From Chloroflexota bacterium (lineage in GTDB: Bacteria; Chloroflexota; UBA11872; VXOZ01): a stretch of DNA of 64,000 nt. The DNA lies in the NCBI GenBank assembly GCA_965220015.1, contig OZ244798.1:1377790-1441789 (forward strand), written 5' to 3'. The translations under genes were made by a program, and so were the position numbers. The notes under the pieces were generated by a model. It made no database searches, was not told where the DNA came from, and was given only the letters and a program-made list of their open reading frames with translations. Numbering within the stretch: position 1 is the first letter of the stretch; the number at the start of each line of letters is the position of its first letter. Below are positions 6,423-64,000 of this stretch, in pieces.

Positions 6423-8266
6423 GCTTGCTGGTCCCATTGGCTCTCGCGTGGGGAGCGCTCGCGGGGCTGGTCTTGCTCTTCTACATACTGCGGCCGCGCA
6501 GCCTGCGCATTGAAGTGCCAAGCATCTTCCTTTGGCGCGACTTGGTGCAACGCGAGCAGGCGCTCACCTTGTGGCAGCGGCTGCGCAGACACCTCCTGCT
6601 GTTCCTCCAACTCCTCGCCATTCTCTTGCTGGCCCTTGTGCTGGCGCGTCCGGAGCGCACGGCAGACTCCCTCCCTCAACGGCACGTGGTGCACGTCATC
6701 GATGCCTCCGCCAGCATGAGCGTGGCCTTCGGGAACACCACGCGGCTGGAAGAAGCGAAGGCCGCCGCGCTTGCGCAGGTAGAGATCGTCGAACCGGGCG
6801 ATCTGCTCACAGTGATGTCATTTGGCAGCCAGCCAGCGGTCCTCTCGTACCAGAATCGAGAGTTGCAAGCCGCGCGCGCTGCTGTCGAGAGCATAACGCA
6901 GACTGCCACGGTGGGGGATACGGAACGCGCATTGCAGTTAGCTATTTCTCTCGCAGATTCTCTGCCCGGTAGTGAGGTCTTTCTCTACACTGACGGTAGT
7001 TTCCCCGCGCCCGCCGTGCCTGAGACTGTGAACACGACTGTGAATTTCGTCCGCGTGGGTACACCGGCCGACAATCAGGGAATCAGCGCCTTTGCCATTC
7101 GCCGTCACCTGGAGAGTCTCCAGGCCTTCGTACAGGTGCAGAACTACAGCGGACAATCAGTCACCGTGCCGCTGGTTATGTTGGCAGACGGGCAGCCGCT
7201 GGAACGACGCGAAATCACACTGGCTCCGTACCCGGAGCCCGGCTCGTCGCTTGACCTGCTCTTTGGTGACTTTCCTGCCGGCACGTCACGTGTGGACGTG
7301 GTGCTGGACCACGAGGATGCGCTGGCGGCGGACGACCGCACCGCGTCGATCCTCATGCCGCCGCCGGTGCTGCGGGCGCTGTTGGTCTCAGATTCACCCT
7401 TCTTTCTCAGCACCGTCTTCGCGCCGCTGCCAAACCTTGCGCTTGACCATGTGCGTCCCGTGGAGTTTCGCCCGGCGGACGTCTATGATCTTTACATCTT
7501 CGACGGCTGGCTGCCAGCGGAGCTCCCGCCGGGCAATTGGCTAATCATCAATCCTCCCCCAGGGTCGCCGATCTTGCCGGTGAGCGGCGAAATGTTTGAA
7601 CCGCCGCTGGAATATGTGGCGCAGGGCCACCGCCTTTTGCAGTTTGTGGATATTCGCGATTTGCGCGTGTCGCGGGCGCAACGCATGGAGTTGCCTGCCT
7701 GGGCGGACGAGCTCATAGGGAGCAATCGCGGGCCGCTGGTGTTCAGCGGGACGATTGACGGCCGGCGCATGGTAGTCTTTTCGTTTTCGATTGTGCAGAG
7801 CAACTTGCCGTTGCGCACGGCGTTTCCCGTGTTGATGGGAAACATCTATCAGTGGCTCAATCCGTACCGCATTCAAGAGACAGTTTCTCACTTTCAGCCT
7901 CAGGATGTGATAGAGCTGGGACTGCATCCGCATGCCGACCGCTTGGTGGTTGAGAGGCCTGACGGCGGGCGCATTTCCTTCGGCGGCAGGCAGCGCATTC
8001 CATTCTCCGCCACGGAGGAACTTGGCGTCTATCGCGTGGTGCACTATGCGGGAGAGCAGGAAGTTTACCGTGAAGTCTTCATCGTTAGTCTCCAGGACAT
8101 AACGGAAACCAACGTCGGCGCCCAGGTGCCGGCGCTCGCGAGCGGCGGAGCTGCGGTACCGCCCATTGAACTGCCGGTCTTCCAAGAGATGTGGCGGTTC
8201 TTGGCGCTCGCAGCGCTCTTACTCTTGCTCTGCGAATGGGTGTGGTATCACCGGGTGCGCACGTAG
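6419..8266 (+). CDS. BatA-like N-terminal membrane domain + von Willebrand factor A domain protein
   Basis: N-terminus MSLLVPLALAWGALAGLVLLFYILRPRSLRIEVPSIFLW matches the aerotolerance BatA N-terminal domain. The VWA MIDAS-like block is HVVHVIDASASMSV. A C-terminal TM helix is present. The start was moved to the ATG at 6419, which overlaps the DUF58 stop; the ORF track starts at 6368. Confidence 0.8.
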   Translation: MSLLVPLALAWGALAGLVLLFYILRPRSLRIEVPSIFLWRDLVQREQALTLWQRLRRHLLLFLQLLAILLLALVLARPERTADSLPQRHVVHVIDASASMSVAFGNTTRLEEAKAAALAQVEIVEPGDLLTVMSFGSQPAVLSYQNRELQAARAAVESITQTATVGDTERALQLAISLADSLPGSEVFLYTDGSFPAPAVPETVNTTVNFVRVGTPADNQGISAFAIRRHLESLQAFVQVQNYSGQSVTVPLVMLADGQPLERREITLAPYPEPGSSLDLLFGDFPAGTSRVDVVLDHEDALAADDRTASILMPPPVLRALLVSDSPFFLSTVFAPLPNLALDHVRPVEFRPADVYDLYIFDGWLPAELPPGNWLIINPPPGSPILPVSGEMFEPPLEYVAQGHRLLQFVDIRDLRVSRAQRMELPAWADELIGSNRGPLVFSGTIDGRRMVVFSFSIVQSNLPLRTAFPVLMGNIYQWLNPYRIQETVSHFQPQDVIELGLHPHADRLVVERPDGGRISFGGRQRIPFSATEELGVYRVVHYAGEQEVYREVFIVSLQDITETNVGAQVPALASGGAAVPPIELPVFQEMWRFLALAALLLLLCEWVWYHRVRT

Positions 8267-8268
8267 CA

Positions 8269-11001
8269 ATGCTTGCTTACTTTTCACAGCCATGGCTGCT
8301 CCTCCTGATCCCGCTGGCATGGATCGTAGTCATCTTGGTTGCCCGGCGTGGCGTGATGCAGCTTTCGCGGCGCACTCTCGTCTTGGCCACGACCCTGCGG
8401 CTGATAGCGATTGCCCTGCTTGTCTTGGCATTGGCCGGACTACGACTGCCGTTGTCAGGCGGACCGGTCAACACGATCTTCTTGCTGGACACCTCTGCGA
8501 GCATCCTGCCCGGGACTCAGGCCGCAGCCCGGCAGTGGATTGAAAGGGCGGCCGCACAGCGCGCGCCCGATGACAGCGTGGCGCTCTTGACATTTGGCGC
8601 GGGCACGCGCATCGACCAACCCTTTAGCCGTGGCGGCATTGGTGAGAGTGAAACCGCGGCCATTGTCGAAGAACGCACGAACATTGCGGACGCGTTGCGA
8701 ATGGCCGCGTCGCTGTTCCCACCCGACGCGCCGAAGCGAATCGTCTTGCTCTCTGACGGCAACCAAACCGCGGGTGACGTCATGCGCGCGGCGGAAGTCA
8801 TCGCGGCCCAGGGTGTGCAAGTGGACGTGGTGCCGCTCCTCGCGGAACCGGGGATCGATGCCGCCGTCACCGAGGTCGCGCCTCCGAATGCCCTACGGGA
8901 AGATGAAAACTTCGAAGTGCGGGTTACGGTGGCTGCCACGACCCAGGGCGAGGCGGTGCTGCGGCTGTTCATGAACGAAACGCTCGTGAGCGAGGGACCG
9001 GTTAGGCTGGAGTACGGCCAGAATTACTTTACAATCCAACAGCCTGGTATCGAAGAAGGGTTCTACTCATTTCGCGCCCAGGTGGTCGCGTCGGATGACC
9101 AGCGCCCGCAGAACAACGATGCGTATGGCTATTCACAAGTGGGGCCCAAGGGTCTCGTGCTGGTGGTAGAAAACATCGTTGGTGACGCAATCATACTTAC
9201 CCAGGCCCTCCAAGCAGCCGGAATCCAGGCGCAGAATGTCACGCCGGCCCAGTTGCCGACTCGCCCGGAAGATCTTGACGGCGTGTCCAGCGTGGTGCTC
9301 GTCAACGTCCCTGCCTCCCAGCTTACCGAACAGCAAATGCAGGCGCTCCAGGACTTTGTGAAGAGCTTTGGCGGCGGTCTCGTAGCGCTCGGCGGCGCTG
9401 CGTCATTCGGCATGGGCGATTATGGCGGCACGCCTTTGGAACATGCGCTGCCCGTCATCTCGCAGCCGCCGGACCATGAGGAATTGCCGACTCTCGCGCT
9501 GGCGCTCCTCATCGATAAATCAGGCAGCATGAACGAGGGCGCTCCGGTCTCCAAGATTGCCATGGCACGTGAAGCGGCGGCGCAGGCAGTTGAGATTCTG
9601 GAGAGCGGCGACGTGCTGGGCGTGCTGGCATTCGAATACTCGCCGCAGTGGGTGGTACGGCCCGCGCCGGTAAATGACGCCGAAGACGCGCAGAATGTTG
9701 TGCGGCGGGTTTCAACCATCGAGGCCGGGGGCGGCACCGACATCTACAACGCCTTGCAGCTTGCTTACGATACGCTCCGCCGTACGCCCGCGCAGGTGAA
9801 GCACATCATTCTCGTAACAGATGGGCAGTCCACTTCCGCGCCCGGCCTATGGGATGTCTTGATGACCCGCATGCGCCGCGACCACATTACGCTTTCAGCA
9901 GTGGCGATAGGGGCGGACGCCGATCAAATTCTGTTGCAGCGGCTGGTGCGGCTGGGTGACGGCAGGTACTACTATGCCGACGTGCCGGAGAACATTCCTC
10001 AGGTCGTGACAAAAGAGAGTCAGCGCGCGAGCCGCTCGCTGGTCATGAGCCGGCTCTTCCAGCCCCGGGTGGTAACGGCCAGCCCGATTTTGCGCGCAAT
10101 CTTGCCCGATTCCTTGCCCAATCTCTCCGCTTTCGTGCGTACAGAGCCAAAACCGGCCGCGGAGACACCGCTACTTTCTGACACTAGTGATGTGATATTG
10201 GCGCAATGGCAGTATGGTCTGGGCCGGGCGGTGGCGTGGACAAGCGATGCCGGCCAAGATTGGGCGGCAGACTGGGGTGAATGGCCCCAGAACCAGCAAT
10301 TCTGGGCGCAAATGGTGCGGTGGACAATGCCGAGTCCGCTCAATCCGCAACTGGCGACACAGGTACAGGTTGACGGTAGCGAGGTGACGGTGGCGGTGGA
10401 TTCGGTGGATGAGCAGGGCAACATTCGCAACTTGCTCAACACGCAAGTAGAGGTGGCAGGCCCGGAACAACGCGCCTTCTCACTCAACTTGCCGCAGACG
10501 GCGCCGGGGCGTTACGCAGGCACGCTGAATGTGGATAAAGCCGGTGTGTATGCCCTGCGCATAACGCAGTACGATGGCGATACGCCGGTGGTGGAGCAGA
10601 TTACGGGCGCCGTCGTGCCGGTTGCAGCCGAGTTCTTGAGCTTTGAGACCGACTATCGGCTCTTGCGGCGTTTGGCTACGGTCACAGGCGGGAAAGCACT
10701 GACGAGCGCGGCGGAGGCATTCCGACATGACCGGCCGCCGCCGGAGGGCTACAACCGGCCCTTCTGGCAGCCACTTGTAGTAATCGCGTTGATCCTGTTC
10801 GTTGCCGATATCGGTGTGCGCCGCCTGCGGTTTACCTGGTATGAGCTTGGGATATTTGGGTCAGTCGTGCGGTCGTTGCGCTTGCCGCGGCTAGGCGCTC
10901 CCTTGCAACGCGAGTTGCAACAGCAACTGCGGCAAGTGTCGCGCATGCGTTGGTTCGCGGGGCTGCAGTCCTGGTGGCAGCGCGTACCTAAGCGGTCCTA
11001 G
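8269..11001 (+). CDS. Large VWA-domain membrane protein (two vWFA domains with a GATase1-like middle domain)
   Basis: N-terminal TM helices and two VWA blocks (TIFLLDTSASILPG and ALLIDKSGSMNEG), then TVSTIEAGGGTDIYNAL, and a C-terminal TM helix. The ATG at 8269 lies 3 nt after the upstream stop; the ORF track start 8191 overlaps the previous gene. Confidence 0.8.
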   Translation: MLAYFSQPWLLLLIPLAWIVVILVARRGVMQLSRRTLVLATTLRLIAIALLVLALAGLRLPLSGGPVNTIFLLDTSASILPGTQAAARQWIERAAAQRAPDDSVALLTFGAGTRIDQPFSRGGIGESETAAIVEERTNIADALRMAASLFPPDAPKRIVLLSDGNQTAGDVMRAAEVIAAQGVQVDVVPLLAEPGIDAAVTEVAPPNALREDENFEVRVTVAATTQGEAVLRLFMNETLVSEGPVRLEYGQNYFTIQQPGIEEGFYSFRAQVVASDDQRPQNNDAYGYSQVGPKGLVLVVENIVGDAIILTQALQAAGIQAQNVTPAQLPTRPEDLDGVSSVVLVNVPASQLTEQQMQALQDFVKSFGGGLVALGGAASFGMGDYGGTPLEHALPVISQPPDHEELPTLALALLIDKSGSMNEGAPVSKIAMAREAAAQAVEILESGDVLGVLAFEYSPQWVVRPAPVNDAEDAQNVVRRVSTIEAGGGTDIYNALQLAYDTLRRTPAQVKHIILVTDGQSTSAPGLWDVLMTRMRRDHITLSAVAIGADADQILLQRLVRLGDGRYYYADVPENIPQVVTKESQRASRSLVMSRLFQPRVVTASPILRAILPDSLPNLSAFVRTEPKPAAETPLLSDTSDVILAQWQYGLGRAVAWTSDAGQDWAADWGEWPQNQQFWAQMVRWTMPSPLNPQLATQVQVDGSEVTVAVDSVDEQGNIRNLLNTQVEVAGPEQRAFSLNLPQTAPGRYAGTLNVDKAGVYALRITQYDGDTPVVEQITGAVVPVAAEFLSFETDYRLLRRLATVTGGKALTSAAEAFRHDRPPPEGYNRPFWQPLVVIALILFVADIGVRRLRFTWYELGIFGSVVRSLRLPRLGAPLQRELQQQLRQVSRMRWFAGLQSWWQRVPKRS

Positions 11002-52686: not shown

Positions 52687-53583
52687 GTGGCGATGAAGAC
52701 GACCGTCCTACCGGAAACCTTGACGTCGAACGGAAATGCCTTTGACCTATCCAATGAGACGTTCGGAGAGTTGAGGGACGCCAATGGCTTGCTCGGAAAC
52801 ATGCCGGCGATTCACGAACGCTTCGCCGAGGATGGTTACCTGCTTTTCCGCAGCTATTTGGACAAGGAAAAGGTGATGGCGGCACGCCGCGAGCTAATTG
52901 AGAAGCTCGATTCAATCGGGCTTATAAACCGCTCTAAGCCGCTGGTGGACGCTATCTTTTCGGGTGATACCAGCGGCATCAGCGCGACGGACCGCAAGGA
53001 ATTTGCCAGAAGTCTCCGCTCCGGCCCAGCGTTAAAGGAGATTTGTTTCTCCGGTCGGATCATGTCGTTCTTCGAGGAATTCTTTGGAGACGAAATCATG
53101 CACCTCAATTACATCTGGGTGCGGAACAGACGGCGCGGGGCTGCCGCGCCCTGCCACTTTGACTGGGTGTATATGGGTCGCGGTACGCGGAATGTGATGA
53201 CGGCGTGGATACCGCAGGGAGCGGCGCCGCTTGTCGATGGCCCACTGGCGATCTTGCACGGTTCCCATAAGTGGCAGGAGCTCCAGCAGACCTACGGCAG
53301 CATAGATGTCGATAAGGACAAAGAAAAGAATCCCTACGGCGGCGGCTCGCTCACGAAGGACCCGAATCAGCCCCAGCAGCTTTATGGCGGGCGCTGGCTC
53401 ACGACGGAGTTCGAGCCGGGCGACGTGCTCATGTTCGGCATGTTCACATTGCACTGCTCGCTTGACAACGAAAGCCCGGAAAACCGCATTCGCCTTTCAA
53501 CCGATACCCGCTACCAACTCGCCAGCGAACCCGCGGACGAGCGCTGGATTGGCGACGATCCGTTCGGCCACGGCATGATGTAG
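52687..53583 (+). CDS. Phytanoyl-CoA dioxygenase (PhyH) family Fe(II)/2-oxoglutarate oxygenase, copy 1
   Basis: HFDWVYMGRG (HxD iron ligands) and the distal His in FTLHCS. GTG start preceded by GAGGGAG at a 6-nt spacing. ~85% identical to copy 2. Confidence 0.8.
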   Translation: MAMKTTVLPETLTSNGNAFDLSNETFGELRDANGLLGNMPAIHERFAEDGYLLFRSYLDKEKVMAARRELIEKLDSIGLINRSKPLVDAIFSGDTSGISATDRKEFARSLRSGPALKEICFSGRIMSFFEEFFGDEIMHLNYIWVRNRRRGAAAPCHFDWVYMGRGTRNVMTAWIPQGAAPLVDGPLAILHGSHKWQELQQTYGSIDVDKDKEKNPYGGGSLTKDPNQPQQLYGGRWLTTEFEPGDVLMFGMFTLHCSLDNESPENRIRLSTDTRYQLASEPADERWIGDDPFGHGMM

Positions 53584-53818
53584 GCCTTACGCCCTTAGGA
53601 CAGACCACGCGAGAAAACCTGGGCTCTCTAGGGGGCGTGGCCGGTTCGTTGTAGCGTGGATCTCTTGGTCATAGCGTGAGCGGTGGCACGGCTCTTTACA
53701 TGTGGGGTTTTGGGAAGTATGCGCCAGAATAGACGAATGTCCGACCGAAGCTGTTCCCGCCGGGCGTTTTACTAAATTCGCGTAGGGGAAGAAATATCTT
53801 TACTCCTTAGGTAGCGAA

Positions 53819-54289
53819 ATGACGACAGCGCGCTTGGAGCACTTCGTATTTGCCCTCTTTTTCCTACTTGTCTTTATCGCCCTGCTGTGGAGACGTGGTG
53901 GGACCAAGGGATTAGACCGCGCTGTTCTACTTGCTCTAATGTTTCCCGTGCTCTATCTCGGAAGCGCCTTGTCCGATTTGGATATTGCGCTACTCGGCAT
54001 CGGCGGACACCGCAATATATTCTTTCACAGCGCGCTGCCATACGCGATCTTTGCACTTATATGCAGGCACGTTCCTTTGCGAACAGATGTTCTAAGCGCT
54101 GCCAAACTTGCCTTTGCACTAGGGTTGTCGAGCCATCTAGTGCTAGACGTGATTCAGTACGGCAATGTTGTTGGTATACCAGGAGCTTTCTTAGATCGGC
54201 TATGGCTGGCCGGCAACGCGGGCGCTCTGCTCTTGGTCATGCGGCCAGGGCGCCTGCCCATGTCTAAGGCTGGAGCAGGAGGGAGCTAA
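53819..54289 (+). CDS. YdjM-family (DUF457) inner-membrane metal-dependent hydrolase-like protein
   Basis: SDLDIALLGIGGHRNIFFHSALP parallels E. coli YdjM PDIDH...GHRGFTHS. N-terminal His (LEHF) and SSHLVLD. Four TM helices. Confidence 0.6.
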   Translation: MTTARLEHFVFALFFLLVFIALLWRRGGTKGLDRAVLLALMFPVLYLGSALSDLDIALLGIGGHRNIFFHSALPYAIFALICRHVPLRTDVLSAAKLAFALGLSSHLVLDVIQYGNVVGIPGAFLDRLWLAGNAGALLLVMRPGRLPMSKAGAGGS

Positions 54290-54290
54290 C

Positions 54291-54551
54291 ATGACGATCA
54301 CAGACCTCGCCCGCATTTTGAGAAACGCACATGCTGACGGCGAAGGGGATATGACACAAGCCTTGAACATTCACATATTTGGCATTGAATATGCTGACAG
54401 CCTTAGTGGGGTTAGCCTCGCGGAGCTTGTGAAACTTGCAGGAATTCCGCCAAGTTACAACAGAGAATTAGCCAAGGGAAAGAGGCTAAGCGCGTACGTG
54501 CGCCTCACCGACGCTGCGATTCACATGATGAAAAAGGCCGACCGCCCGTAG
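54291..54551 (+). CDS. Small hypothetical protein with a possible C-terminal XRE-like helix-turn-helix
   Basis: 86 aa. VSLAELVKLAGIPPSYNRELAKGKR resembles an HTH_3 motif. It starts 2 nt after the YdjM-like stop. Confidence 0.4.
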   Translation: MTITDLARILRNAHADGEGDMTQALNIHIFGIEYADSLSGVSLAELVKLAGIPPSYNRELAKGKRLSAYVRLTDAAIHMMKKADRP

Positions 54552-54928
54552 CTAAGCGCCTGCCCGGATCACCCTTTGTAATGTGCTTGTCCAACGCGCG
54601 AGATGTACTCCTAAGTTCGTAACCCTACGGTGCTCTCCATCTATGTCTTGGCCGTTAGCTCGGAAGCCGTACTAGATTTCCCAATTCACGCTTTGGGTAT
54701 CTACGGTTCTCGGCCCCAAGATGCGGTCGTTTTGCGGAATCTTGCCCTTCAGTCCATCGAAATGCTCGACTGTAATAACTATGAGGCGGAACGTACCGCC
54801 AGATTGCGGTACATGAGTGTAAAATGTAGTATTGATTCGGCGGCAGCATGCGCTGATACGGCCAGGCGGCCAAGAATGGCTCTGTTATCTACTTAGAGGC
54901 AGTCACGTAATCAGGGAGGGTTGGCAAA

Positions 54929-55825
54929 GTGGCGATGAAGACAACGGTCCTACCGGATACTTTGACATCGAACGGCAATGCCTTCGACCTCTCCAACGAG
55001 ACGTTTGGGGAGTTGCGAGACTCCAAGAGCCTGCTGGGCAACACGGCGGCGCTGCACGAGCGGTTTGCCGAAGACGGCTATTTGCTCCTGCGCGGTTACT
55101 TGGACAAGGAAAAGGTGCTCGCGGCGCGCCGAGAGCTGATTGGCAAGCTCGATGAAATCGGCCTGATCGATCGCGCGCGTCCCTTTATGGATGCCGTCTT
55201 CTCAGGTGATACCAGCGGCATCAGCGCGAGCGACCGGCAGGAATTTGCCCGCCATCTCCGCTCAGGTCCGGCGCTAAAGGAGGTCTGCTTCTCCGGCAGG
55301 ATAATTTCCTTCTTCGAGGAGTTTCTCGGTGATGAAGTGCTGCATCTCGATTACATTTGGGTGCGCAACGTGCGGCGCGGCGCGGCCACCGGCTGCCACT
55401 TCGATTGGGTCTACATGGGACGCGGGACGCCAAAACTAATGACGGCGTGGATCCCGCAGGGTGAGGTGCCTCTCGGCGACGGTCCGCTGGCGATTCTGCA
55501 AGGTTCGCACAAGTGGCATGAGTTACAGAATACTTACGGCAAGATTGACGTGGACAGGGACAAGGATAAGAACCCCTACGGCGGCGGTTGGCTGACGAAG
55601 AATCCGAATCAGCCCCAGCAGCGCTACGGCGGGCGCTGGCTCACCACGGAGTTCGAGCCGGGCGACCTGCTCGTCTTCGGTATGTTCACGCTCCACTGCG
55701 CAATTGATAACGAAAGCGCGAAGAACTGCATCCGCCTCTCAACCGATACGCGCTACCAACTCGCCAGCGAACCCGCCGACGAGCGTTGGATCGGCGACGA
55801 CCCCTTCGGCCACGGCATGATGTGA
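54929..55825 (+). CDS. Phytanoyl-CoA dioxygenase (PhyH) family Fe(II)/2-oxoglutarate oxygenase, copy 2
   Basis: Collinear with copy 1 (MAMKTTVLPDTLTSNGNAFDLSNETFGELRD...HFDWVYMGRG...FTLHCA...GDDPFGHGMM). GTG start with GGGAGGG upstream. Confidence 0.8.
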   Translation: MAMKTTVLPDTLTSNGNAFDLSNETFGELRDSKSLLGNTAALHERFAEDGYLLLRGYLDKEKVLAARRELIGKLDEIGLIDRARPFMDAVFSGDTSGISASDRQEFARHLRSGPALKEVCFSGRIISFFEEFLGDEVLHLDYIWVRNVRRGAATGCHFDWVYMGRGTPKLMTAWIPQGEVPLGDGPLAILQGSHKWHELQNTYGKIDVDRDKDKNPYGGGWLTKNPNQPQQRYGGRWLTTEFEPGDLLVFGMFTLHCAIDNESAKNCIRLSTDTRYQLASEPADERWIGDDPFGHGMM

Positions 55826-55865
55826 GGCAGTATCCGCAATGAGGCGCGTTGTGGTTTTAAGCCTC

Positions 55866-56042
55866 TCATGGAATAAGTTCCAGCACGGCAAGCACGACAG
55901 CCGCAGCCATGACAAGCGCCCCCAAGCGCAGCGTCATGCGCAGTTCCACGGATTGCAACCGCGTATCTAAGCGCATTTCCAGCGCTTGCAGGTCTGCCTT
56001 GGTTGCGAGCGCTTCGTGCCCCTCGCCCACTGCGTTGATCAT
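55866..56042 (-). CDS. Small DUF1640-like protein (coiled coil + C-terminal TM helix), 58 aa, below the ORF-track cut-off
   Basis: Minus-strand translation MINAVGEGHEALATKADLQALEMRLDTRLQSVELRMTLRLGALVMAAAVVLAVLELIP* gives a heptad-like helix and then a hydrophobic tail, as in DUF1640 proteins. Confidence 0.35.
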   Translation of the reverse strand: MINAVGEGHEALATKADLQALEMRLDTRLQSVELRMTLRLGALVMAAAVVLAVLELIP

Positions 56043-56196
56043 CGCTTACGCTTGGGTTTCCGTGAAGCCCGCGCCGGTGAGTGTTTTTACCGCTTTGTAG
56101 GTGTCAAACATTGCCATAGATTCAAAACTTTCCGATCCCCGCTAGCAGACACGAATTTTCCCCGCCTACCAGCGACCGCTTGAGTTTCCACTGTCG

Positions 56197-56871
56197 TTAG
56201 GAACGTTGATTCCGGAATCGCTGTAATGACTCTTCAAATTCTTGTTTTAATTCCAGAGTTCGAGCGCGAATGAAGTCTCTTTCGGCTCCTGCTGCTAGCT
56301 GTTCTTTGGCTATGCTTAGATGCTTGTAGGAATCGGAGTCCTTTGGATTTAGTCTGATGACCATATCAAAGTCCGCTATGGCTTTAGGGTACTCTCTTAA
56401 CATTCCGTGTGCAATCCCACGGTTGAAGTAGGCGTTGGCATCTGTTGGATTGAACTCAATACTCTTGTCAAAGTCTGCAATAGCTCTAGCAAACTCCTCC
56501 AAATCCGCAAGGGCACTGCCGCGATTGAAGTAGGTATCAGCATGCTCCGGGTTGAGTGTAATGGCCTTACCGTAGTCTGTTATAGCCTTTCCGTGCTCCC
56601 CTAGTCTTTCGTAGGCAACCCCACGGAAGTAGTAGGAATCAGCATTGCGTGGGTTCAGTCCAATGGCTTGGCCAAAGTCCGCTATAGCTTTGTCGTACTT
56701 CCCTAGTCTTCCGTAGGCAAGCCCGCGGAATTAGTGGGCAATACTATTCGCGGCATCAAGCGCTATTGCTGCACTGCATTCCGCTATCGCTTTATGCATC
56801 CGGCCTTGACGGAAGAATGCCTTGCCAGCTTTGCAACGCTCCTCGGCCCCAGATAGGAGTCTTTGCCGCAT
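56197..56871 (-). pseudogene. TPR-repeat protein gene interrupted by an in-frame TAA (Tyr codon TAC->TAA) at 56731-56733
   Basis: Continuous minus-strand frame: MRQRLLSGAEERCKAGKAFFRQGRMHKAIAECSAAIALDAANSIAH*FRGLAYGRLGKYDKAIADFGQAIGLNPRNADSYYFRGVAYERLGEHGKAITDYGKAITLNPEHADTYFNRGSALADLEEFARAIADFDKSIEFNP.... The stop sits exactly where the sibling repeats have the conserved Tyr (compare ADSYYFRGVAY). Confidence 0.6.
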
Positions 56872-56914
56872 AGGGTCTCGGCTGTCTCCAGGTGCTGCTC
56901 CATGTCGAGTAGTG

Positions 56915-56990
56915 TGGTACCCCGTGAGCGACTCGAACGCTCGACCCCTGGCTCCGCAAGCCAGTGCTCTATCCACTGAGCTAACGGGGC
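56915..56990 (-). tRNA. tRNA-Arg (anticodon read as GCG)
   Basis: Minus-strand sequence GCCCCGTTAGCTCAGTGGATAGAGCACTGGCTTGCGGAGCCAGGGGTCGAGCGTTCGAGTCGCTCACGGGGTACCA folds as a cloverleaf. Acceptor 7 bp with G1-U72. D arm GCTC/GAGC. Anticodon stem CTGGC/GCCAG with loop TTGCGGA. T arm GAGCG/CGCTC with TTCGAGT. Encoded CCA. Confidence 0.8.
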
Positions 56991-61530: not shown

Positions 61531-64000
61531 CTACCGTTGCGCTGGGGGGATTTGCAGGCGCTGCCCGACTGAGATCACATTCGGATCTTCGATCTGGTTG
61601 AGTTCCGCGAGCGCATTCACTGTGACGCCAAACTGTTGAGCAATCGACGTGAGCGTGTCTCCGGCCTGCACGACGTATTCAGTAGTTGGCGGAGTCGCAG
61701 GCGGCGTAGGCGCTGCAGAGGGAGGGACGCCCGGTGTTGGTGAGGGCGCGGATGGCGGCTGCGCCGTTGGCGAAGGCTGCGCCGCGGGAGATGATTGCGC
61801 CGCGGGCGAAGTTGGCGCCACGAGCAACTGTGGCGTTGGGGACGGCGACGAAGGCGCCTGCATTTCCGCTTCAACCGATACTTCGCCCGATGCACTGGTG
61901 GTCTCGGGATACCAGAGGCCCCGCGTCGCGAATGTGACGCCGATGATCACCGCAACAGCCAAGAAAACTACACCTCTCGCAAGTCCCTGTTCGCCTACGA
62001 GCGGGGTTCTCGTACCGGCAGGGAGAAGCGGCCACCAGTTAGCTTTTATGGAAGCCGGCCACCAGTTCGCTCTGCCGACCAACGTTACAATCCCCGGCAC
62101 GAGGAGCGAGCGGACAACTAACGCATCTATGAGGATGCCCAGCGCGACAGCCGCACCCATTTGGAAGAGCATCTGCAGCGGCGATGCCGTAAGCGCGGCA
62201 AAGGTTCCGGCGAGGATGACACCGGCGGCCGTAATGATCGCCCCGGTGCGCGCCGAAGCTACGCGTACACCTTCCCGCAGCGGCAACGACGCACTTTCTT
62301 CCCGAATGCGGTGCACCAAGAAGACATTGTAGTCCGCCCCGAGCGCGATGAGCATGACCATGACCGTCAAGGGCAAGAGGTAGTACACACCCTCGTGCCC
62401 GAGGATGCCTTGGAAGAACAGGGTAGAGAGTCCCAAGCTGCTGCCGTACGAGAATACGACGGTGCCAACTAGATAAAGGGGGGCGACCAGGCTGCGGAGC
62501 AGGATGGCGAGGACAGCAAAGATGCCCACCACGGTAACAATGCCCACTGTCTGCAGGTCTTGACGGACCACCCGCTGAATGTCGGTGATCTCTGCAGTGG
62601 ATCCACCTACGAAAACCCTTGCCGAGCCCAAAGGCCCGTCGCGATTTTGCTCCACAGTTTCTCGGACTGCGTCTAACGCGTTGATTGCCCTTGCGCTAAG
62701 TGGGTCTTCCTTAAGAATGACAAAGAAGCGGATTGTCTTTGTATCTTCAGAGAAGAAGAGGGGCATGATGGCGCTCGAGGCCTGCTCCACGCCGGGGAGT
62801 TCGGTGGGAATGAAGTAGGGGTGGGGATACGCCGCGAAAACTTCACGCAATGCGGTGAGCGCATCCGCCACGCTGCGCATAGCCTCAGGAATTGGAGCCT
62901 CCGTCGTCTGCTGCAAGGCTGCCCCGCTTGGAAAGAAAACCGCCCCCGGCTTATCGGCAAAGAAGCCGGCCAGCAGCTCTAGCTGGGCTGCAACTCCACT
63001 AAGAGATGCTTGAATTTGGGCTTGCTGCGCCGCTCGTTGCTGCGCTGAGAGATTGGAAGACGTAGACGCATTCTGTGCCGCCTGCTGAATCGTATTCAGA
63101 ATTCTCGTTGATTCCACATACGAGGGGTGTGCGGCAACGTCCGGAAAAGCTTCGGATAATTCCGCGAGGTAGCTGCTCAGCGAAGCCAGCACCGTTGCGG
63201 GATCAGCCGGACTTTGAGAGGGTGCGGGTCGGCGTAGCTGGTCGGCCATTTGCCGTAGCTGCGTGGCAGGATGCGCTTGGGTGCGAAGAGCGGCAGTGGT
63301 CCCTGACAAGTTCGTAAGCGCTTCCCTCGTTTGAAGAAATTCGGGGGCTTGCGCAACTTCAGGGAAAGAGTCTGCAAGTTCATCCACGTACCGTTGTAAT
63401 GTGCTTACTTGGGCCGTAGCTTCTTCGATCAGGCGCGCGGCCGGTGCGTCTTCACCCACAACGGGAGCACGCAATGAATCAGCAATTTGGTCAAGCTGCG
63501 CAGGGACCGTGAAGGCAGTAACGGCGCCATCGCCAATGGGGTCTATGATGCTGCGCATCTGATTCACAGATTCCAATGCCAAGAGGTCTTCCTGCAGCGA
63601 GGCGATCGCGCGCAGATACGGCGTAGATGTAAGGTCGCTGCTTTCGGGTAACTCGAGCAGCACGGCAGCGGGCGCGAACTCTCCCTGCGGAAAATGCTTG
63701 GCAATGGCATCGAATCCCTGACGTGAATCGGTGCTCTTTGGCAGCGACGCCAGCATCGCCAAATTCTCGCGATACTGCAGGAGACCCAGGTACGGAATGG
63801 CAAGGGCCACGGTGATGACAAGCACTAGCACGAACGGGCGTCTGGCCACCAGGTTGCTAATACCCACCCAAAAGGCAGTCGGTTGTGTGTTTTCAACGCT
63901 CGTCTTGCGGGGCCAGAAGAGATGACGGCCAAAGAGAGAAAGCAAGGCTGGCGTAAGCGTAAGCCCGGCGAGAAGCGTGATGCCTACGGCTAAGGCCAGA
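61531..64000 (-). CDS. MMPL-family (RND-superfamily) transporter with a C-terminal Pro/Ala/Thr-rich linker and LysM domain; N-terminus lies beyond the window edge
   Basis: The minus-strand frame is open to position 64000 (...LALAVGITLLAGLTLTPALLSLFGRHLFWPRKT is the MMPL TM6/GRxxFWP junction). A large extracytoplasmic domain follows. The second TM bundle is (ITAAGVILAGTFAALTASPLQMLFQMGAAVALGILIDALVVRSLLVPGIVTLVGRANWWP). Then comes a P/A/S/T linker and LysM (EYVVQAGDTLTSIAQQFGVTVNALAELNQIEDPNVISVGQRLQIP). Confidence 0.8.
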   Translation of the reverse strand, partial: LALAVGITLLAGLTLTPALLSLFGRHLFWPRKTSVENTQPTAFWVGISNLVARRPFVLVLVITVALAIPYLGLLQYRENLAMLASLPKSTDSRQGFDAIAKHFPQGEFAPAAVLLELPESSDLTSTPYLRAIASLQEDLLALESVNQMRSIIDPIGDGAVTAFTVPAQLDQIADSLRAPVVGEDAPAARLIEEATAQVSTLQRYVDELADSFPEVAQAPEFLQTREALTNLSGTTAALRTQAHPATQLRQMADQLRRPAPSQSPADPATVLASLSSYLAELSEAFPDVAAHPSYVESTRILNTIQQAAQNASTSSNLSAQQRAAQQAQIQASLSGVAAQLELLAGFFADKPGAVFFPSGAALQQTTEAPIPEAMRSVADALTALREVFAAYPHPYFIPTELPGVEQASSAIMPLFFSEDTKTIRFFVILKEDPLSARAINALDAVRETVEQNRDGPLGSARVFVGGSTAEITDIQRVVRQDLQTVGIVTVVGIFAVLAILLRSLVAPLYLVGTVVFSYGSSLGLSTLFFQGILGHEGVYYLLPLTVMVMLIALGADYNVFLVHRIREESASLPLREGVRVASARTGAIITAAGVILAGTFAALTASPLQMLFQMGAAVALGILIDALVVRSLLVPGIVTLVGRANWWPASIKANWWPLLPAGTRTPLVGEQGLARGVVFLAVAVIIGVTFATRGLWYPETTSASGEVSVEAEMQAPSSPSPTPQLLVAPTSPAAQSSPAAQPSPTAQPPSAPSPTPGVPPSAAPTPPATPPTTEYVVQAGDTLTSIAQQFGVTVNALAELNQIEDPNVISVGQRLQIPPAQR

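Follow-up and report, generated by a model that had tools for sequence, protein, structure and literature searches.

Flexible genomic islets are strain-variable accessory genes that lie between core genes and are exchanged by homologous recombination in their flanks. In E. coli, the gene ydjM is under LexA repression and is thereby part of the SOS response. Another repressor, RptR (RMS-proximal transcriptional regulator) of enteropathogenic E. coli, attaches to arrays of 6-bp palindromes of the TAGCTA type that cover its own -10 box; it requires two or more such sites close together, and its recognition helix contacts bases through Glu58 and Lys61. It keeps a defence island repressed, and also occurs next to modules of unknown function that are not restriction-modification (RM) systems (PMC12255303). 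We analyzed a locus where relatives of YdjM and RptR are encoded together, in a 64,000-nt stretch of DNA from a Chloroflexota bacterium (assembly GCA_965220015.1, contig OZ244798.1, positions 1,377,790-1,441,789), referred to here as the window. Two genes for PhyH-family dioxygenases, phyA and phyB, are separated in it by a spacer that carries both genes as a small cassette. The account that we consider rather probable is that the phyA/phyB duplication is old, and that the two cassette genes belong to a foreign spacer allele that would have spread by homologous recombination, without transposition or integration machinery of its own.

The cassette shares with flexible islets a fixed site, presence or absence in close relatives, atypical composition, the lack of mobility genes, and a younger coalescence. 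Unlike the usual islet, it comprises two genes in 1.1 kb, lies between paralogs, and is found across lineages that are 79% identical in the gene ppc. An earlier note on this DNA, made from the sequence alone, had proposed either a duplication followed by an insertion or the capture of a foreign cassette between paralogs. The comparative data given below agree with this proposal and support it, although what happened in the spacer would more aptly be called allele replacement through homologous recombination than clean insertion.

Layout and composition of the locus

The features of the locus, all on the + strand, are as follows.

52687-53583, + strand: phyA, PhyH-family Fe(II)/2-oxoglutarate dioxygenase, 298 aa, GTG start (open reading frame, Pfam PhyH)
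53584-53818, + strand: 5' non-coding arm of the cassette, beginning right after the phyA stop codon (unmatched in spacers that lack the cassette)
53819-54289, + strand: putative divergent YdjM/DUF457-like (PLC-like) integral membrane protein, 156 aa (PF04307 below cut-off, family profile, helical model)
54291-54551, + strand: RptR-family (HTH_73) small predicted DNA-binding protein, 86 aa (PF24718, profile match to 9R2Z)
54552-54700, + strand: cassette-linked 3' non-coding arm, including TAGCTA at 54549-54554 (no blastn match to cassette-less spacers)
54701-54928, + strand: ancestral phyB upstream region with promoter-like block, leader and Shine-Dalgarno site (homologous to the 3' ends of relatives' spacers)
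54929-55825, + strand: phyB, PhyH-family dioxygenase, 298 aa, GTG start (open reading frame, Pfam PhyH, orthologs)

The two PhyH reading frames described by the earlier note were found as collinear + strand genes of equal length with GTG starts, and both match Pfam PhyH; their products are identical at 246 of 298 positions with no gaps (83%, where ~85% had been estimated). The spacer was correctly said to be less GC-rich than its surroundings. Its 1345 bp (53584-54928) have a GC content of 0.530, compared with 0.593 +/- 0.020 in 1345-bp windows, and rank in the lowest 0.3% of these, and the GC content at third codon positions (GC3) is also atypical, with values of 0.55 and 0.59 in the two spacer genes and 0.64-0.78 in 30 neighbouring genes. 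The two spacer genes had been thought to overlap, but they are adjacent; the TAA of the membrane protein gene ends at 54289 and the ATG of the HTH_73 gene starts at 54291, 1 nt apart. The gap between the HTH_73 gene and phyB (54552-54928) has the length of 377 bp and the AT shift (GC 0.517) that had been noted, but it is not all insert, because its 3' 130-230 bp are the ancestral region containing the putative phyB promoter and leader. An 88-aa open reading frame in the gap (54630-54896) was rejected as a gene, as its reading frame is not kept open in relatives, and an Rfam scan (gathering and E-value thresholds) returned two tRNAs plus noise, and nothing else.

The cassette occupies one site in two divergent lineages

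Fifteen syntenic loci (L001-L015), all from metagenome-assembled genomes (MAGs) of uncultured Chloroflexota, were obtained by scanning one genome per species, and the gene order murJ-like, ppc, PhyH gene(s), tRNA-Arg(GCG), hflC, hflK is common to them. Neither cassette gene was found within +/-10 kb of the locus in any of the 15. The cassette is present at this site in the window lineage and in a distant lineage represented by L018 and L021, and also on the short contigs L019, L020 and L022, while the closest relatives of both cassette lineages are cassette-less. In the sister copies it starts at the identical junction, directly after the phyA stop codon, and L018 and L021 both read ppc-phyA-cassette-phyB. 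L022 comes from an independent assembly and has 100% protein identity to the window. Since sister and independent contigs carry the cassette at the same site, an assembly artefact is excluded. When 5.8 billion protein clusters were searched, the cassette proteins were recovered only from the source genome and from one sister cluster each. The earlier note had considered that two copies with an insert in all related genomes would indicate an ancient stable locus; the two-copy part is indeed ancient and stable (14 of 15 relatives), but the insert is absent from 15 of 15.

Spacers between phyA and phyB fall into three size classes, of 162-195 bp (L008, L009, L011-L013), 431-437 bp (L001-L007, L010, L015), and 1340-1345 bp in the cassette-bearing loci. 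Cassette-less spacers match the window only in their last 130-230 bp (54701/54750-54928), that is, in the presumed phyB promoter and leader. Positions 53584-54700 of the window have no counterpart in these spacers, and conversely the window has nothing that corresponds to the first 210-257 bp (5' side) of the 435-bp spacers. Degraded remnants of the cassette were sought in the cassette-less spacers, and none were found.

Comparison of the two cassette lineages showed that the 5' arm (53584-53818) is 66-75% identical overall between the window and L018, with a conserved block of ~50 nt at about 53730-53785 (GACGAATG.CCGACCGAAGCT.TTCC.GCCGGGCG.TTTACTAA) that may be the cassette promoter. The 3' arm (54552-54700) is 67-92% identical to that of L018, and the TAGCTA at 54549-54554, which overlaps the HTH_73 stop codon, is present in every cassette copy.

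The cassette is less diverged than its flanks

In ppc, the window has 90% nucleotide identity to the cassette-less loci L001/L015, and L018 has 97% identity to the cassette-less loci L004/L006/L007, compared with 79% between the window and L018. Synonymous divergence (dS) between the window and L018 is 1.30 for ppc, 1.23 for the murJ-like gene and 1.00 for phyA, but in the cassette only 0.27-0.29 (YdjM-like gene) and 0.16 (HTH_73 gene), 3-8 times below the flanks. The same contrast was seen at fourfold-degenerate sites, of which 270/555 (0.49) differ in the flanks and 21/116 (0.18) in the cassette (Fisher p = 5.7e-10). On either side of the spacer, L018 and L004 share 93-100% identity, compared with 45-77% across its alignable part, and in-situ divergence cannot account for this contrast. 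Together, the composition and the low synonymous divergence show a cassette that, to judge by its sequence, is younger than its surroundings and foreign to them.

A different history would have the cassette ancestral to the clade, inherited vertically, and deleted independently in most lineages. The identical junction in two lineages only 79% identical in ppc is in keeping with such a history, and the three spacer size classes indicate that deletions do happen here. However, an ancestral cassette is hard to reconcile with a dS of 0.16-0.29 next to genes at 1.0-1.3, with the fourfold-site contrast, or with spacers that are 45-77% identical when L018 and L004/6/7 are 97% identical in ppc, and the missing gene remnants in cassette-less spacers and the atypical GC3 also speak against it, so that we find it quite improbable.

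The contrast in dS, the patchy presence, and the absence of mobility hallmarks (see below) lead instead to a spacer allele spread by homologous recombination. Candidate homology arms are the phyA 3' end, where the window and L018 are 90-97% identical, and the phyB 5' region, where they are 88-93% identical. That the locus recombines follows from the mixed ancestry of L003, whose ppc groups with that of L002 (89% nucleotide identity) while its phyA and phyB are L004-type (synonymous difference, pS, 0.19 and 0.12), which indicates that its whole PhyH pair was probably replaced by recombination.

Mobility hallmarks were not found

Autonomous mobile elements (insertion sequences (IS), miniature inverted-repeat transposable elements (MITEs), integron cassettes and integrative islands) differ from the cassette in having a transposase or integrase, terminal repeats and a target-site duplication. 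No transposase or integrase was found between ppc and hflC (49.5-59 kb). Terminal inverted repeats and a target duplication were also not detected beyond short repeats at chance level, none of them conserved in L018; the best inverted pair (53587/54609), matched at 12/14 positions, is likewise not conserved there; no search was aimed at attC-type structures.

If the cassette were nonetheless all or part of an autonomous or site-specific element, such as an IS or MITE, an integron cassette, or a tRNA-targeted island, it would have to have entered the same site twice. Low GC and patchy distribution would fit, as would the presence, 1.1 kb downstream of phyB, of a tRNA-Arg and its hypervariable region of TPR genes, and HTH_73 homologs are found elsewhere by IS1595 and a methyltransferase or by a phage-type integrase. 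In addition to lacking the hallmarks of such elements, however, the cassette replaced spacer DNA and was not merely added to it, it was never seen at another site in the searches made, and phyB stands between it and the tRNA. We therefore regard an element of this kind as very unlikely.

The PhyH duplication is old

PhyA and PhyB match PhyH (PF05721) with 56 and 53 bits (cut-off 22), and cover profile positions 1-211 of 213. The triad H157-x-D159 and H256 is kept in both copies, as is R269/R275, and in an alignment with the structure of PtlH, a 1-deoxypentalenic acid 11-beta-hydroxylase (2RDN), these residues fall on its HQD, CHKS and RMSMDTR segments. The corresponding PtlH residues are presumably the ligands. 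The alignment with PtlH extends over ~255 residues with the triad and the C-terminal Arg motif in register, but the relationship is distant (E = 6e-10; 53 bits against an NCBIfam equivalog cut-off of 550). Unlike PtlH, the window paralogs belong to a clade rich in Chloroflexota and Poribacteria that has no characterised member, and their hydroxylase activity is a prediction. An exact look-up of the phyA product gave no record. For phyB, the start is GTG, as an ATG at codon 3 is not conserved among relatives.

At the DNA level, phyA and phyB are 79.6% identical, and 59% identical at third codon positions, with a Nei-Gojobori dS of 1.07 and a ratio of nonsynonymous to synonymous divergence (dN/dS) of 0.095. 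Alignment of the copies with their flanks showed homology from the GAGGG Shine-Dalgarno block to the stop codon and nothing beyond. The ~40 nt of shared upstream sequence claimed by the earlier note thus holds for the Shine-Dalgarno GAGGG and the GTG, but not for the remainder (ungapped comparison of 80 nt).

Both paralogs are present in 14/15 related species-level genomes, in the same ppc-phyA-phyB-tRNA-Arg-hflCK context. Amino acid identity to the window copies is 88-93% for the phyA orthologs in 14 related genomes and 85-98% for the phyB orthologs in 15, and each relative's copy is nearer to its window counterpart than to its partner in the same genome. Within-genome dS between A and B is 0.8-1.5 across all 15 genomes. 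Neighbour-joining with the single-copy loci L016 and L017 as outgroups gave the A+B clade a bootstrap support of 100/100 and the A clade one of 99/100, which argues for one duplication before the clade diversified and no later gene conversion. A recent tandem duplication, as implied by the earlier note, is ruled out by the dS of 1.07, the 79.6% nucleotide identity, homology confined to the coding sequence plus the Shine-Dalgarno site, and the spread over 14 species. Both genes are evidently kept under purifying selection throughout the clade. No more than 4 fixed differences separate the A clade from the B clade (P155G, V170L, S221W and S258A). Two of these sit 2 residues from an iron ligand, which hints that PhyA and PhyB may have diverged in substrate handling.

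Some relatives depart from the two-gene arrangement. L014 is the only one with a single PhyH gene (10001-10894), which is B-type and retains the putative phyB promoter block; its sister L009 has both genes, and phyA was probably lost from L014. L003 has an extra 66-aa N-terminal PhyH fragment (10001-10198) between ppc and the full phyA, and L021, on a low-coverage and frameshift-rich contig, has an extra C-terminal fragment (aa 233-298; 6459-6658) between ppc and phyA. These fragments suggest further partial duplications or rearrangements at the locus.

The YdjM-like membrane protein

The earlier note had assigned the 156-aa spacer protein to the YdjM/DUF457 type. This assignment is supported through its family: among 34 aligned relatives, PF04307 was matched by 34/34 at E<=0.01 (best 1.8e-8), DUF5942 by 22/34, and Zn_dep_PLPC by 10/34, and a His/Asp/Arg constellation is invariant (R5, H8, D53, D55, H64, R65, H70, S71, H106 and D110). 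The AlphaFold model is an all-helical membrane bundle (pLDDT 82.6, pTM 0.81), and hydrophobic segments are present. The protein thus has in common with the YdjM/DUF457 family a multi-helix membrane architecture and the His/Asp/Arg constellation, together with weak cross-matches to Zn-dependent phospholipase C and DUF5942; it differs in scoring below the family cut-off, in having no Cheo/LexA box upstream, and in belonging to a distinct subfamily whose other close members adjoin MMPL genes. Comparison with the sister copies in L018/L019 gave a dN/dS of 0.20-0.27, which places the gene under selection.

In relatives of 42-52% identity, an MMPL/RND transporter gene lies directly downstream, in 6/6 places looked up and in 20/20 metagenome loci with enough downstream sequence. 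No HTH_73 reading frame stood beside the YdjM-like relatives in 65 metagenome loci (0/65). From these neighbourhoods, the cassette copy is apparently an orphan of the MMPL-coupled subfamily, newly paired with an RptR-type gene. The window has an MMPL gene of its own (61531-63945), which was rejected as the partner, as it is not of the MMPL type coupled to YdjM-like genes. This minus-strand gene encodes an 803-aa MMPL-family protein with a C-terminal LysM domain, an unusual combination that is conserved in L001, L004, L007 and L015.

No GAAC-N4-GTTC was found in 53584-53830 (<=1 mismatch), and there is hence no LexA/Cheo box upstream of the YdjM-like gene. The sole perfect GAAC-N4-GTTC in the 64-kb window, which is the core of the Gram-positive/Chloroflexi-type LexA box, lies inside the YdjM-like coding sequence (54081-54092); it is not conserved in L018, and ~1 is expected by chance.

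The RptR-family protein

The 86-aa protein, which the earlier note had rightly called HTH-like, scores 71.8 bits against HTH_73 (PF24718), compared with 92.7 bits for RptR and a cut-off of 27, and a 67-sequence family profile matches the RptR structure 9R2Z (E = 1.9e-11). By these profile matches it is an RptR-family (HTH_73) regulator. The family is small, as an exhaustive search of 1.84 billion representatives gave 187 related clusters only, mostly stand-alone proteins of 70-90 aa. E59/K62 align to E58/K61 of RptR, and E59 is invariant or nearly so in family alignments, whereas, of the dimer-interface residues of RptR (Glu25, Leu69, Ala72 and Leu74), E25 is replaced by N26. A predicted structure of the protein, made from 2 sequences, was unusable (pLDDT 48.6).

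RptR and the window protein have in common the Pfam family, their size (79 and 86 aa), a single all-helical domain, and Glu and Lys in helix 4, and both are on laterally acquired DNA at a recombination-prone site. The window protein differs in being ~25% identical to RptR, in belonging to Chloroflexota and not Gammaproteobacteria, in being the second gene of its operon, and in having an extra C-terminal helix, which is common to a small subfamily. The cassette also differs from the RptR locus in having neither type I RM nor DarTG cargo, and no TAGCTA-type array upstream.

Other HTH_73 genes occur beside a phage-type integrase among small open reading frames (L035) or alone (L030-L032). On L033 and L034 (1679-4261 of each, from one sample), identical units consist of an IS1595 transposase, an N6_N4 methyltransferase and an HTH_73 gene whose product shares 45% identity with the window protein; the arrangement resembles a mobile unit that joins a methyltransferase to a regulator and exists in two or more copies or contexts. 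A tblastn search with HTH_73 against plasmids and phages gave one uninformative Thalassospira match and no phage matches.

The pairing of these genes raises the question of a minimal defence or addiction module, in which a repressor of the RptR family would keep a YdjM-like membrane-active effector in check until phage infection or DNA damage sets it free. Coupling between the two genes is tight, the cassette has a patchy distribution and is exchanged laterally, the regulator has a dN/dS of 0.65, and E. coli ydjM is itself controlled by an inducible repressor, LexA. The involvement of RptR in repressing a defence island, and its occurrence beside non-RM modules, point the same way (PMC12255303). 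However, PADLOC gave no match to the cassette genes, and no defence genes adjoin the HTH_73 gene, its neighbours being ppc, PhyH, TPR, tRNA and HflKC genes; NCBIfam and PHROGs gave nothing useful for the cassette genes. Moreover, no RptR-type operator array lies upstream, and the nearest relatives of the membrane protein (45-52% identity) are always MMPL-coupled in ordinary metabolic neighbourhoods, suggesting a housekeeping role in lipids or the envelope. A defence function is, in our estimate, unlikely.

The phyB upstream region

A promoter-like block, TTGCGG (54804-54809), 17 nt, and TAGTAT (54827-54832), precedes phyB by ~95 nt. All of the loci compared (17/17), including the single-copy L014, keep the ATTGCGG...GTAGTATTG block, and the leader beyond it is partly conserved, from which we infer that it is the phyB promoter. 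A consensus promoter scan missed this block, whose -35 fits TTGACA at 3/6 positions only. The cassette lies upstream of the conserved block, so phyB need not be disturbed by it, if the promoter assignment is correct.

An RptR-type hexamer, TATCTA, is found at 54886-54891, 43 nt upstream of the phyB start. It is in the same place in L018 (8598) and L021 (9076), but not in the cassette-less loci L001, L004, L006, L007 and L015. This distribution would be of interest if the cassette were wired to the dioxygenases, for example through regulation of phyB by the HTH_73 protein, and the spacer as a whole holds 3 RptR-type hexamers where 0.35 are expected (top 1.6% of windows). But these sites are 149-188 nt apart and RptR needs at least two close ones, one 6-mer that coincides in two lineages carries little weight, and the recognition specificity of a 25%-identical homolog may differ from that of RptR. 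In addition, 14 genomes run phyA and phyB without the cassette. Wiring to the dioxygenases thus seems to us most improbable, and the 14 cassette-less genomes make the cassette an accessory to PhyH function, not part of it.

A second hypervariable site downstream of phyB

The interval from the phyB stop to the 3' end of tRNA-Arg(GCG) (minus strand, 56915-56990) is a second hypervariable site (55826-56990 in the window). The gap ranges from ~7 bp in L009 to ~3.1 kb in L015, and is filled with low-GC TPR-repeat genes of very different lengths. In the window, it contains a 101-aa TPR open reading frame (56197-56502, GC 0.44) with out-of-frame TPR-like remnants to ~56793, and a 58-aa coiled-coil/TM open reading frame (55866-56042). 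No integrase was seen at this site.

Discussion

The sequence of events that we favor would begin with an old tandem duplication that produced phyA and phyB between ppc and tRNA-Arg(GCG)/hflCK. The spacer between them would then have become a hypervariable site with its three size classes (~165, ~435 and ~1345 bp), where the ~1.1 kb from the phyA stop to ~230 bp upstream of phyB would be a foreign, lower-GC allele holding a two-gene operon. This allele would have passed between divergent lineages, with the phyA 3' end on one side, and the phyB promoter and 5' coding region on the other, acting as homology arms. The operon would be read from a promoter in 53584-53818. By analogy with RptR, the HTH_73 protein probably autoregulates the operon by repressing the cassette's own promoter, and the YdjM-like protein, parted from its MMPL gene, probably acts on envelope lipids as a metal-dependent hydrolase.

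Several observations weigh against parts of this account. The cassette was not found in other genomic contexts, in viral contigs (searched with both proteins), or in JGI metagenomes (searched with the HTH_73 subfamily). Between the two clades, phyB is less diverged than phyA, with a fourfold-site divergence of 0.28, and part of the signal could be locus-wide gene flow and not a single cassette transfer; the fast evolution of the spacer also keeps the breakpoints from being placed at single-nucleotide precision. With respect to autoregulation, the four RptR hexamer variants are all absent from 53584-53818 (235 bp) and from its L018 equivalent, and the HTH_73 gene is second in the operon, not first as in RptR, while its dN/dS of 0.65, on few substitutions, is compatible with relaxed constraint. 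With respect to the YdjM-like protein, its own PF04307 score is 25.4 bits, under the cut-off of 29, and a Foldseek search of its model against the PDB gave no match with E<1.

A bolder idea, which is a long shot, is that the cassette is a minimal mobile module in which an RptR-family repressor gates a YdjM-family membrane effector, in parallel to LexA and ydjM. If this analogy were true, YdjM-type proteins released from repressors would act as membrane-active stress or anti-phage effectors, which would offer the widespread DUF457 family its first link to a function, and RptR-type regulation would extend beyond Gammaproteobacteria and RM cargo.

The cassette itself appears to be a fairly ordinary, but clean, accessory gene islet, and it does not overturn current ideas. 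It documents gene flow, apparently through homologous recombination, across Chloroflexota lineages whose identity in a housekeeping gene is only ~79%, which is rarely possible with MAGs of uncultured symbiont type. It also extends the RptR family, through a predicted regulator, to a new phylum and to new cargo, and shows a YdjM-like gene apart from its otherwise constant MMPL partner. The locus is thus a well-resolved example of such exchange, and may provide a lead for tests of HTH_73 and YdjM-like function.

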